A DNA stretch of 11,016 nucleotides from Candidatus Heimdallarchaeota archaeon (GTDB taxonomy: Archaea > Asgardarchaeota > Heimdallarchaeia > JABLTI01): NCBI GenBank assembly GCA_030614005.1, contig JAUWKS010000091.1:1-11016 (forward strand). The letters are read 5' to 3'. Every line of letters begins with the position of its first letter. The first letter of the stretch is position 1. The notes beneath the pieces are model-generated. The model did no database searches. It was given only the letters and a program-made list of their open reading frames with translations, and was not told the DNA's origin. This document shows, one piece after another, positions 1 through 11,016 of the stretch. The position numbers and the translations under genes were made by a program.

Positions 1-201
1 GCTTCCTCGCTCTGCTAGCACTATCACAGAAACGCCTTGTGGTCAGGCAACGACTCTTGAAAGAATTTCGAGAGAAGTTTTTTAGCGATATACAGCCAAT
101 CGTCAAACGAAAGTTCCTCCCTCACGGGAGTTGGGCGGACTCGCAGAAAGTCAAAAGTTAACACCAACTCTTTAAGAGTGCGTTAACCAAGATAGACCAT
201 G
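1..201 (+). ncRNA. Putative structured RNA (TnpB omegaRNA/right-end-like or intron-like 3' domain)
   Basis: 46% GC by manual count (92/200), higher than the visibly AT-rich flanks. Nested stems: 1-9 with 69-78 (one bulged A), 34-37 with 45-48, 85-88 with 141-144. GNRA loop in both copies and cUUCGg loop in copy B read on this strand. Loop 38-44 can pair with 195-201. The family assignment is inference only. Confidence 0.45.
78..201 (+). repeat. Dispersed structured repeat, copy A (3' end of a probable mobile element; probably extends to base 1 and beyond)
   Basis: Matches the reverse complement of 10892-11016 at 113 of 125 alignment columns (11 mismatches, 1 gap, manual alignment). Similarity stops abruptly after ...GATAGACCATG at 201. 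Contains hairpins AAC-GAAA-GTT (106-115), CTCCC-TCAC-GGGAG (117-130) and GTTAAC...GTTAAC (157-187). Confidence 0.95.
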
Positions 202-266
202 CTGATAGCAATCCTCGGGATATAAGAAAATTAACCGTAGAAGATGTTACTATCTGGCATGAATAA
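202..266 (+). pseudogene. Possible orphan 3' tail of a gene interrupted by repeat copy A (...ADSNPRDIRKLTVEDVTIWHE*)
   Basis: A frame stays open from the element junction to TAA at 264-266, 1 bp from the convergent stop of the DinB gene. It has no start codon of its own. Too short to assign a family and could be chance. Confidence 0.3.
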
Positions 267-4210: not shown

Positions 4211-5179
4211 TCATTCCAATCTATTCAATATTCTATAAACTAGAAAAGTTATCCATGGAGAGGGTTCTTTTTTCTGCCCAAAATCCCAGCCTTTTGCTGC
4301 TCTCCAAACGGATTCTGCTGAAAAGAATCCATTAGTATCAGCTTTTCTCTTAATAATGGATATCATTTCTAAAAATCGTTCATCTTTGTGTAAATTTGAT
4401 AGCTGACTAAGAACATCTGTCAGATGAATTATGTCGTACCAAATCATTGGTGCCTTTAATTTTTTAAAATCAGTACCCATTCCAAACAAATACGGTTTGC
4501 GTTCTTTCCGTTGAGTCCATAAACTAAGCAGTACTTCTGCTCCTTCGTATGCGATTTTATCTTTCTTCCATTTCGGATGTTGGATTAGAGCTTTCAAAGT
4601 GATTAGATTAGCATAAGGGCAAGGATCTCCTTTTCTTCCTGGGCCTCTGAACTTGCCTAATTTCTCAGAAACTGTGCAATGCCAACCGTTCTCTTTCTTC
4701 AAACTGATTAAATGATCATATGCTCTTTCAAGTTTGTCAGTTCGGTCCAAACCCAATTTCATCAGTGAGTACAAAACTGTCGGAGCATCACATAGCATCC
4801 ATGTGGAATCATCCTCTCCTGAACCACCAAAATGAGTTGGTATATTCATAATAATCTCAAAAGATCCTTCTGATGATTGTGTTTTGAGTATTCGCTCGAT
4901 AACTTTTCCGATTTTAGCGTCTTCTTTTCTCAATCCAATATCAGCTAGAAATGACAATTTATGGATTGAATGTTTAGCATCATTGTGCCTTTTCAAAGCT
5001 GCACCTGGCCATAGCAATAATTCTTCAATAATAGTCGTTACTCTCTGATCTGCTATAATTTTTGATTTAATTTCTATAATTTGTTCATTCATGTTCTTAG
5101 TTTTCAAGAATTCAATCCTTGAATTGTATTCAACAAAGTGTTCTGATTGTAAAAGCCAGTCTAGTACTACTTGTTCCAT
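4211..5179 (-). CDS. Terpenoid-cyclase/protein-prenyltransferase-like alpha/alpha-toroid fold protein of unknown function
   Basis: QW-like repeats (KTQSSEGSF, LKKENGW, KADTNGFF) plus GDPCPYAN and APMIWYDIIHLTDVL segments. Likely start is ATG 5179 after GGTGGGG, rather than 5191. Confidence 0.7.
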   Translation of the reverse strand: MEQVVLDWLLQSEHFVEYNSRIEFLKTKNMNEQIIEIKSKIIADQRVTTIIEELLLWPGAALKRHNDAKHSIHKLSFLADIGLRKEDAKIGKVIERILKTQSSEGSFEIIMNIPTHFGGSGEDDSTWMLCDAPTVLYSLMKLGLDRTDKLERAYDHLISLKKENGWHCTVSEKLGKFRGPGRKGDPCPYANLITLKALIQHPKWKKDKIAYEGAEVLLSLWTQRKERKPYLFGMGTDFKKLKAPMIWYDIIHLTDVLSQLSNLHKDERFLEMISIIKRKADTNGFFSAESVWRAAKGWDFGQKKEPSPWITFLVYRILNRLE

Positions 5180-5281
5180 AATCCCCACCAATCAATTATC
5201 ATTAGTTTCATTATAATTTATAAGTATTGTAGATAATAAGGTCAGCTATGCAAAAACAAATATTCACCCAATATTAGTTAG

Positions 5282-9682: not shown

Positions 9683-10600
9683 TTGTTGTCCGTTCTAAAA
9701 CAAATACAGGATGCGGAATTTAAATTGAAGAATGCCAAACTAAAAAAACAAGAACAAGAAATTGCAAAAGTTCTGAAAAAAAGGTTCAATAAAATAACTG
9801 ATCCGAATTATTCATTGTTTGATGAAGAATACAAACGCTTTTCATTCATGAATCGTATTTTTTGGGTGTTCTTGCTTGGAGGATTACCTCTATTTGTTCT
9901 AGGACTCGTTTTACTTATTTTAGGAAATATTTTTGGAATTATACCCATTACTTTTGGTGGTATGGGAATAATGATGCTAATGTACTTACCTATCTTGATA
10001 ATAGATCACCGGAAATTTAAGCCCATAATGGAATTGAAAGAAAAGAAGCAAATAGATAGATTATTGGAAATAGCCAAGAAATACAGTTTATCCAATAGTA
10101 CCACGGATCAAGAACGAGCAAGAATAGCAACCTATCTTTTGATTGATTTTAAATCCAAAGAAGTAGCCAACATTTTGAAAACTCGTTTGCAACAGAGAAA
10201 ACCTGGAAGTATTCGACTCTTACTAAGAGCATATTATCTTTTAGCAATTAAGTTAGGATATAATGATCATATAGAGATGTTTTATGATGAAGATTTATTC
10301 AAAGGAAGAGTAAAAGAACAGAAGAAATTCGTAGATGATGTTGATAACGAAATTGTTGTTCCAATAAGCAAGATTTACTATATTGATGAAATACCCAACG
10401 AGGCAAAATGTATGATTACAGGCTTAACATTTGACTTTAGTACAGATGAAATTGTTGTTTGCCCTTATTGTTCTGCATGGGCAAAAAGAGAATTGTTAGC
10501 TTCTTGGTTAGGTGAAAATGATTTCTGTCCTGTTTGTCGTCGAGAATTGCATCTATCAGATTGTCCTACTGTACAATATTCTCCTAAAAAGAAACGTTAG
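9683..10600 (+). CDS. Two-TM membrane protein with a C-terminal degenerate RING-like zinc domain
   Basis: Hydrophobic hairpin IFWVFLLGGLPLFVLGLVLLILG / IFGIIPITFGGMGIMMLMYLPILII. C-terminal CMIT-x13-CPYC-x11-W-x6-CPVCR motif at 10409-10540. Confidence 0.75.
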   Translation: MLSVLKQIQDAEFKLKNAKLKKQEQEIAKVLKKRFNKITDPNYSLFDEEYKRFSFMNRIFWVFLLGGLPLFVLGLVLLILGNIFGIIPITFGGMGIMMLMYLPILIIDHRKFKPIMELKEKKQIDRLLEIAKKYSLSNSTTDQERARIATYLLIDFKSKEVANILKTRLQQRKPGSIRLLLRAYYLLAIKLGYNDHIEMFYDEDLFKGRVKEQKKFVDDVDNEIVVPISKIYYIDEIPNEAKCMITGLTFDFSTDEIVVCPYCSAWAKRELLASWLGENDFCPVCRRELHLSDCPTVQYSPKKKR

Positions 10601-10894
10601 TTAGCTAGTAAATTTCTTCCTTTCTTTGCTAGCTTTACTTTGAACTTTTTTAATGAATTTTGCTTTTCCTTCTGTGTAAGCAATTCGATCGTTTTTGTAT
10701 TTTTTAGCTAATCCCATCTTGAGGTTATTGTATTCTTTTGCAGTTTCCGGATGAGTGCGCAAATACTCTCTGAAAAGGATATTCTTTTCCCAATTCTCCG
10801 TGTTAACTTCAACTAAGTAAAGGTGGATTTTTATTCCATTTATAGATTTATCAAGTGCCTTTCTTTCTGAAATACCCTCTATACTTTTCGTCAT
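10601..10894 (-). pseudogene. C-terminal half of a GrpB (UPF0157) family protein, 5' half missing at the repeat junction
   Basis: IHLYLV...W..NILFREYLRTHPETAKEYNNLKMGLA...DRIAYTEGKAKFI matches the GrpB C-terminal pattern (HLHV..W..LLFRDYLR.HP..Y..LK..LA..DR..YT..K..FI). The N-terminal HIGST/PIIDI motifs are absent. The apparent ATG is the last 3 nt of repeat copy B. Confidence 0.8.
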
Positions 10895-11016
10895 GGTCTA
10901 TCTTGGTTAACGAGCTCTAATAAGAGTTAGAGTTAACTTTTGACTTTCTGCGAGTCCGCCCAACTCCCCGAAGGGAGGAACTTTCGTTTGACGTTTGGCT
11001 GTATGTCGCTAAAAAA
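10892..11016 (-). repeat. Dispersed structured repeat, copy B (cut off by the window end)
   Basis: Reverse complement is about 90% identical to 78-201. The hairpin loop here is cTTCGg. Same terminal ...CAAGATAGACCATG. Similarity runs to the last base of the window. Confidence 0.95.

Follow-up and report, generated by a model that had tools for sequence, protein, structure and literature searches.

Repeat Copies at Both Ends of a Heimdallarchaeota Contig

The window analyzed here is a complete contig (JAUWKS010000091.1, labeled C93; 11,016 nt) of the metagenome-assembled genome (MAG) of Candidatus Heimdallarchaeota archaeon, a member of the Asgard archaea (GCA_030614005.1; 3.62 Mb in 126 contigs, 33.5% G+C, 90% complete). 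Both contig ends are inverted copies of one repeat, located at positions 1-200 (+) and 10893-11016 (-), with an inverted-repeat identity of 93% for the right-hand copy (91% in the BLAST match). In an earlier note, made from the sequence alone, bases 1-201 were proposed to be the right end of an RNA-guided nuclease element. Our analysis points in the same direction: the repeat at 1-200 and its inverted partial copy are best read as the right end of a TnpB-only element of the IS200/IS605 group (IS1341-like; ~1.8 kb), carrying the scaffold of an omegaRNA with a flank-derived guide, and we assign to this interpretation a probability of about 0.88. The features distinguished in the window are listed in Table 1. 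Genomes are referred to as G000 (the host genome), G001 and G010 (congeners) and G032 (from another family of the Heimdall class).

BLAST searches revealed 16 copies of the repeat in the host genome, mostly at contig ends, and the assembly therefore evidently broke inside the repeated element. Some copies are identical across the 104-127 nt assembled at contig ends (assembler behavior at repeats could contribute to this identity), and the insertions are polymorphic between congeners, with empty sites in G001 and G010. The identical stretches, together with insertions that differ between congeners, indicate that the element has moved within the genus, and the spread of this TnpB-only element in the Heimdall genus may be recent.

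The TnpB Protein

The window carries only the last 52 codons of tnpB. Their translation in frame +3 (FLALLALSQKRLVVRQRLLKEFREKFF...) is identical at 27 of 28 positions with residues 440-467 of the 499-aa TnpB encoded by the copy on contig C8. A TnpB tail had been suspected in frame +2, which is indeed open to a TAG at 83-85, but only by accident, since the true TnpB frame is +3. In the complete (contig-internal) copies, an open reading frame (ORF) of ~500 aa that includes zinc-finger and DRD motifs is placed directly upstream of the repeat, where the earlier note had expected a TnpB gene. The C8 protein scores 172 bits against the NCBIfam model guided_TnpB (NF040570; cut-off 100) and lies above the Pfam cut-offs for HTH_OrfB_IS605 (PF12323), OrfB_IS605 (PF01385) and the Cas12f1-like TNB zinc ribbon (PF07282). 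It also matches TnpB and Fanzor2 chains of the PDB by sequence. Intact ORFs of 430-510 aa are kept by many relatives.

Across 16 homologs (40-83% identity), the residues D250, G341, E395 and D429 and the four zinc-finger cysteines are invariant. Glycine takes the place of the canonical RuvC-II glutamate (IIIGDLN), and an alternative glutamate is found six residues ahead of the first CxxC (ISERDTTKLCTYC). To judge from these residues, the RuvC triad (D250/E395/D429) is conserved with its glutamate at the alternative position, and the protein is, by its residue pattern, a TnpB of the known "rearranged RuvC-II" type. The alternative-glutamate arrangement has been described previously (PMC10711439), as has the class with a rearranged RuvC-II, whose RuvC site was predicted to be active (PMC10691335).

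The same residues bear on a different reading, namely that of a domesticated, non-cutting, TldR-like TnpB locus or a decaying, dead element whose 3' RNA no longer guides cleavage. We regard it as very improbable: none of the 16 homologs departs from the alternative glutamate or from either aspartate, and the rearranged site is predicted to be active (PMC10691335), intact ORFs of 490-510 aa occur in many relatives, the loop and the 3' end of the RNA (see below) keep co-varying, and the 16 copies occupy unique sites, some being identical over 104-127 nt and polymorphic between congeners. What speaks for decay or domestication is the glycine in place of the canonical RuvC-II glutamate, the loss of the NAAxN part of RuvC-III in the genus, the lack of a detected transposase, the truncation of several copies (such as that on C29, with a 188-aa ORF) and the existence of decayed, AT-rich copies.

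Three further observations concern tnpB genes of the host and its relatives. In the copy on C29 (C29:3796-4272, -) the guide-RNA scaffold is complete and tnpB is reduced to its last ~150 codons, fused to unrelated sequence in the 188-aa open frame; this copy is possibly a guide cassette that has lost its nuclease. The host genome also contains another scaffold subfamily, in decayed form (C67:19864-20022, -; C124:3238-3394, +), which is without the branched core described below and is preceded by tnpB remnants of only 129-140 aa; its loop reads UUUGGUC and its end GACCAA, a U39-A200 pair replacing G-U. A related 446-aa TnpB of G032 (contig C104; L030:1524-2861, -) combines the RuvC-I motif D-P-G with the alternative glutamate, a combination known as the rare "Fanzor fingerprint" and found mostly in cyanobacteria (PMC10711439).

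Element Boundaries, Target Site and Interrupted Genes

Alignment of the 16 copies with their flanks showed that the shared repeat stops at base 200 (...GATAGACCAT) and, in the right copy, at 10893. Base 201, which had been counted as the last base of the element, is G in 10 copies, A in 5 and T in 1; this variability places it in the flank and the end of the element at 200. All 16 right-end flanks are single-copy host DNA, unrelated to one another. For 13 copies a left end was found, with the common start GAT(A/T)(T/C)(C/T)ATTTCGTTAAC... (element sequence beginning GATATCATTTCGTTAACC...). The four bases directly 5' of these left ends are TTAT (10), TTAC (1) or GTAT (2), preceded by a purine in 12 of the 13 cases. 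The two ends of the element are asymmetric and share CGTTAACCAA.

Two empty sites were identified. The first corresponds to the left copy of the window, G001 reading ...GGTTAT|GCTGATAGC... vs. ...GACCAT|GCTGATAGC... in the window. The second is an uninterrupted gene of G010, which is equivalent to the left flank on C97 (ending in TTAT) joined to the right flank on C99 (starting with GGATAAT); the join is base-for-base at the junction, the 40-residue peptide is identical to that of G010, and nothing is lost or duplicated. The two sites thus show that the element inserts precisely on the 3' side of TTAT and duplicates no target sequence, and insertion of this kind, 3' of a specific tetranucleotide, fits IS200/IS605 elements. 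On the basis of the 13 left-end flanks and the two empty sites, TTAT is a candidate target-adjacent motif (TAM).

The left copy of the window interrupts a nitroreductase gene, of which 21 codons and the stop follow the element. The 5' half of this gene was sought in the host assembly, where only paralogs with 27-30% identity were found. The right copy truncates a GrpB gene, whose ortholog in the congener G010 (181 aa) continues upstream. The apparent GrpB start codon arises from the last AT of the element and the first flank G; the target TTAT|G already held an ATG.

A leader reading, in which the element is a riboswitch or leader ending in ATG before genes, was rejected on two counts: base 201 belongs to the flank, and the ORFs that follow are host genes in truncated form. 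A reading as an intron- or IStron-like element, or as a 5' leader for downstream genes, has next to no probability. Both window copies do lie in sense orientation within host genes, and 4 of the 16 copies have a long ORF running from the junction ATG. These ORFs are, however, truncated internal parts of GrpB, aldo-keto-reductase-like and 2-oxoacid oxidoreductase genes rather than native starts, their ATG is formed by the target TTAT|G and the terminal AT of the element, and base 201 is not conserved. No group I or group II intron or other Rfam match was found in the window, the left end or the complete element (left end and whole element searched at E up to 1). Nor did Rfam match the whole window at gathering thresholds or bases 1-260 at E up to 10; the only match was a chance sRNA far below threshold.

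Three side observations were made at the boundaries. G stands directly after the element in 10 of the 16 host copies and in the majority of congener copies, vs. ~17% G genome-wide, so that the junction often reads ATG; this bias is absent in other families, whose elements end with GTTCAC or GTTCAT. A solitary left-end fragment (C42:5414-5522) follows GTAT inside a 17-kb contig, with neither tnpB nor a right end nearby. A search for a right end belonging to the left end on contig C110 found none.

The Predicted Guide-RNA Scaffold and Its Pseudoknot

The predicted omegaRNA (or reRNA, right-end element RNA) scaffold overlaps the tnpB tail and extends to the right end of the transposon. Its 5' end was inferred from the pattern of variation among 24 copies: in bases 1-20 the variation follows codon positions (entropy 0.56/0.00/0.87), and in bases 21-85 it is flat (0.24/0.21/0.25), though this segment is still inside the ORF. 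The loss of codon periodicity from about base 21 indicates that the constraint switches there from protein to nucleic acid. In the same 24 copies, a model with ten helices reaches 95% pairing, and both partners have changed at 10 of its pairs.

The pseudoknot itself was analyzed in 51 copies trimmed to their true ends and derived from three archaeal families; these sequences are related rather than independent, and the separate substitution events are fewer than the counts given. The hairpin at 34-48, with the GCCT/AGGC stem and the TGTGGTC loop that had been recognized from the single sequence, is present, and its stem covaries: each of its four pairs has undergone changes in both partners, with 99% of cells paired. 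A single-sequence minimum-free-energy fold, which pairs the loop with bases 23-29, was set aside, the stem covariation favoring the hairpin. Between the loop (39-44) and the last six bases of the element (195-200), 97.7% of cells are paired, and three of the six pairs show compensatory changes (pair counts in Table 1), in line with the covariation across copies that the earlier note had called for. That note had proposed a 7-bp pairing of 38-44 with 195-201. The complementarity of GACCATG to the loop (five Watson-Crick and two G-U pairs) exists as described, but only 6 bp are conserved, and U38:G201 does not belong to them, since base 201 is flank. When the 3' partner is slid by 1-3 columns, the pairing of the counted structure (14 pairs) falls from 96.6% to 32-40%. 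Four pair types at 39:200 and a complete U-A/A-U swap at 43:196 are hard to explain otherwise, and the covariation shows that the 6-bp loop-to-3'-end pseudoknot is real. Its continuation in both partners indicates continued selection on the RNA. Its geometry is that of the ISDra2 omegaRNA, in which the segment from -6 to -2 has its partner at -102 to -106 (PMC10097598), and it also agrees with the guide-adjacent pseudoknot that proved necessary in an IS607 TnpB (PMC10711439).

Downstream of the hairpin, the stem-loop at 49-79 has a 9-nt loop insertion in some copies. Its helix 54-62/66-74 (98% paired) clashes with a closing helix 1-9/69-78 suggested previously, which had to be abandoned: it is paired in 65% of cells, and 4 of its 9 pairs are mostly broken in the 24 copies. 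Bases 96-144 form the most conserved RNA core, and bases 86-149 are all that a plain DNA search detects in further families of the class. In the right-end part, the hairpin 157-187 shows compensatory changes in its inner stem and folds as single-stranded DNA (z = -2.06); it probably doubles as the last stem of the omegaRNA and as the right-end hairpin recognized by a transposase, the latter role being presumed from its position and fold. RNAalifold also placed a long-range helix at 21-25:191-195. As a whole this helix is incompatible with the pseudoknot, because the two cannot share G195; its compatible part (22-25:191-194), a possible helix, is 92% paired, with one-sided changes only and A23 broken in 11 sequences. 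A covariance model of the nested helices was matched over its full length in 9 of 10 congeners and in two further families within the class; it also matched diverged copies in the host genome.

Predicted Guides and Proposed Mechanism

Since the element ends at 200, the guides would start at 201 (+) and 10892 (-). The earlier prediction was right to place them directly downstream of the element and set their starts (202 and 10891) one base too late. Because all 16 right-end flanks are unique host DNA, the guides would be flank-derived. For their length, 16 nt was assumed on the model of ISDra2.

By analogy with ISDra2 and other TnpBs (PMC10097598; PMC10055086), the tnpB transcript would be processed to an omegaRNA consisting of the scaffold and ~16 nt of DNA past the right end. 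TnpB loaded with this RNA might then recognize TTAT together with the guide-matching sequence, i.e., a donor site emptied by excision, or an allele that the element does not occupy. Cutting of this empty site, followed by repair from an occupied copy, would restore the element, and such cleavage could favor its retention or homing.

Table 1. Features distinguished in the window (11,016 nt); counts at the three pseudoknot pairs refer to the 51 aligned copies, pairing of the other helices below the hairpin to 24 copies.
Feature	Position	Strand	Remarks
tnpB 3' end	1-161	+	Frame +3, codons 3-158, stop TAA 159-161; cut by contig edge
omegaRNA (reRNA) scaffold, predicted	21-200	+	~180 nt; overlaps tnpB tail, runs to transposon right end
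Pseudoknot hairpin	34-48	+	Stem 34-37/45-48 (GCCT/AGGC), loop 38-44 UGUGGUC
Pseudoknot 5' strand	39-44	+	GUGGUC; pairs with 195-200
Stem-loop	49-79	+	49-51/77-79 plus 54-62/66-74; 98.3% paired, 2 pairs with both-sided changes
Branched domain	96-134	+	96-99/131-134 enclosing 106-108/113-115 and 117-121/126-130
Small hairpin after branched domain	135-137/142-144	+	From pair counts
Subterminal right-end hairpin	157-187	+	GTTAAC arms 157-162/182-187, inner stem 167-171/175-179
Pseudoknot 3' strand	195-200	+	GACCAU; terminal hexanucleotide of the element, adjoining the predicted guide
Pseudoknot pair	39:200		G-U 22, G-C 12, A-U 10, U-A 4, unpaired 3
Pseudoknot pair	42:197		G-C 24, G-U 23, A-U 1, unpaired 3
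Pseudoknot pair	43:196		U-A 29, A-U 22, unpaired 0
Predicted 16-nt guide, left copy	201-216	+	GCTGATAGCAATCCTC; starts the nitroreductase remnant; empty site in G001
Nitroreductase gene remnant	201-266	+	Last 21 codons and stop; intact G001 gene encodes a 182-aa nitroreductase
GrpB C-terminal half	10601-10894	-	Truncated by right copy; Pfam GrpB match limited to profile positions 77-158 of 159
Predicted 16-nt guide, right copy	10877-10892	-	GACGAAAAGTATAGAG; shared repeat ends at 10893; flank unique in genome
Second, inverted partial right end	10893-11016	-	Equivalent to bases 77-200; cut by contig edge

The other genes of the window encode DinB-like, GH20 hexosaminidase, TPR, SDR, class-III aminotransferase, flavodoxin/ferredoxin and diacylglycerol-kinase-like proteins. 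Three ORFs gave no Pfam match, i.e., those at 865-1428 (+; 187 aa), 4211-5191 (-; 326 aa) and 9683-10600 (+; 305 aa). The last of these ends in a cysteine-rich CPVCRREL...C motif.

Mobilization and Related Loci

Several observations weigh against the assignment to a TnpB-only IS200/IS605 element. No Y1 TnpA (PF01797) was found in the host genome (90% complete) or in 10 congeners, so that a defining component of IS200/IS605 is missing, and no serine recombinase (Pfam Resolvase, PF00239) was found in the host genome. The left end contains no significant hairpin (z = 0.4). Both the target TTAT and the element end in AT, and the junction can be shifted by up to 2 nt. The RuvC-III neighborhood, anticipated in the earlier note as DRDxNAxxNI, reads DRDTSS... 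in the genus and thus departs from DRDxN, and the C8 copy, the only fully assembled one, reads GRD. Finally, the MAG is incomplete, and the tnpB genes of both window copies lie beyond the contig ends.

The Y1 family is nevertheless present in the class: PF01797 proteins are intact in other families and decayed beside a related tnpB in G032. On contig C104 of the latter genome, the 446-aa TnpB gene is arranged head-to-head with a decayed Y1 TnpA gene containing stop codons (fragments at C104:6917-7278), which ties this TnpB lineage to Y1 elements.

The gene for a 542-aa LAGLIDADG-HTH (WhiA/meganuclease-like) protein is located head-to-head with a related, diverged tnpB at five places in the host genome (C8:4611-6239, -, and contigs C48, C15, C9 and C86). 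At the left end of the short element, 24 nt are identical to the ribosome-binding and start region of this gene, a remnant which suggests that the short TnpB-only form may have arisen by deletion from a longer one. Movement by an unrecognized enzyme, such as an Asgard Cas1-type integrase or the LAGLIDADG partner, or spread mainly by TnpB-guided homing, in either case without a classical TnpA, is unlikely.

We consider it improbable that the element is of the IS607 type, or is otherwise moved by a double-strand recombinase, with crossover at a matching AT and the final AT being a core built into the scaffold, as in ISXfa1. The junction does allow this: the left flank ends in AT in 12 of 13 cases and AT also terminates each of the host's own 16 copies, giving the 2-nt ambiguity, and A199 and U200 belong to the pseudoknot; moreover, TnpBs with the alternative glutamate include the IS607 lineage ancestral to Fanzors (PMC10711439). 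However, four conserved target bases (TTAT) preceded by a purine (12/13) fit Y1-type recognition better than a dinucleotide, one left flank reads TTAC, and the base after the shared end is variable (G, A or T). The host genome contains no Pfam Resolvase, and the related G032 TnpB adjoins a decayed Y1 TnpA instead of a serine recombinase. The C8 TnpB also scores higher with the NCBIfam model IS200_TnpB (99 bits) than with IS607_TnpB (56 bits), both values being below the cut-off.

Comparison with Known Systems

One of the closest known systems is ISDra2 of Deinococcus radiodurans (PDB 8H1J, 8EXA; PMC10097598), in which the 3' end of tnpB likewise overlaps a structured guide RNA running to the right end, the bases preceding the guide pair with an upstream loop, the guide is derived from the flank (as predicted here), and the target is a tetra- or pentanucleotide 5' of the left end. 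The sequence similarity to ISDra2 TnpB is weak (E = 1e-7), and the Heimdall element differs in having a longer TnpB (~500 vs. 408 aa) and scaffold (~180 vs. 116 nt), pseudoknot partners ~155 rather than ~100 nt apart, and TTAT as its target. The target motif of ISDra2 is TTGAT. Furthermore, ISDra2 has the canonical RuvC-II glutamate, whereas the Heimdall TnpB has glycine there and the alternative glutamate, and ISDra2 has a Y1 TnpA, none being found in the Heimdall genome.

In its active site the Heimdall TnpB is similar to the RIIr branches (Altae-Tran et al., 2023; PMC10691335) and the Ealt clade (2023 NAR, PMC10711439), sharing with them glycine at the canonical glutamate, the ExxxxxxCxxC pattern just ahead of the zinc finger and, in keeping with the D-hydrophobic-G type of these clades, D-L-G in RuvC-I. 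Some of these branches were reported to be nearly archaea-specific (PMC10691335, PMC10711439). Activity in these clades is predicted from models, and the Heimdall protein is placed among them by residue pattern.

Among archaeal systems, the sense-overlapping RNAs (sotRNAs) of IS1341-type tnpB genes (Gomes-Filho et al., 2015; PMC4615843) similarly arise at the 3' end of TnpB-only elements; they were detected experimentally in haloarchaea and other archaea, whereas the Heimdall RNA is deduced from covariation. The Asgard aCas1-associated TnpB loci (Cas1H-Asgard-1 and -2; PMC10691335) come from the same host group. In contrast to these loci, the two copies bounding the window are of, or similar to, the short form that carries tnpB only and has a left end of its own and the target TTAT; the published conserved motif downstream of the variable region was not seen here, and every right-end flank is unique. 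The TnpB and Fanzor2 reRNAs of the ISXfa1 (IS607) type (PMC10711439) share the alternative-glutamate-type site (Fanzor2, "pro-Fanzor" TnpBs) and a conserved guide-adjacent pseudoknot. The IS607 systems, however, have a fixed right-flanking base in the scaffold and a serine recombinase, whereas in the Heimdall element this base is variable, and the host genome yielded no serine recombinase.

The hairpin motif, which the earlier note had likened to one common in tnpB tails, does recur as the pattern AAYGCCYTGTGGWCRGGCWA in many Methanosarcina, Methanoculleus, Bathyarchaeota and Asgard genomes. The Methanosarcina hadiensis chromosome contains seven near-identical TnpB right ends with the loop UGUGGAC, in which the motif precedes the shared end (...GTAGTTCAC) by ~170 nt and unique flanks follow. 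The scaffold family to which the Heimdall RNA belongs, with a UGUGGWC loop that would pair with a terminal GWYCAY, is widespread among archaea, spanning Euryarchaeota and Asgard archaea; as it has no Rfam model, the present alignment could seed one.

The biology of TnpB, its omegaRNA, the pseudoknot and the flank-derived guide is established, and the Heimdall element is a well-delimited further example of it. With it, both contig ends and two broken host genes receive a corrected annotation. The delimited unit comprises (i) a candidate TAM (TTAT), (ii) an exact scaffold-guide boundary, (iii) two verified empty sites and (iv) a covariation-backed structure with a pseudoknot. Through this clean delimitation, a TnpB with a rearranged active site, from the archaea most closely related to eukaryotes, becomes open to direct testing.

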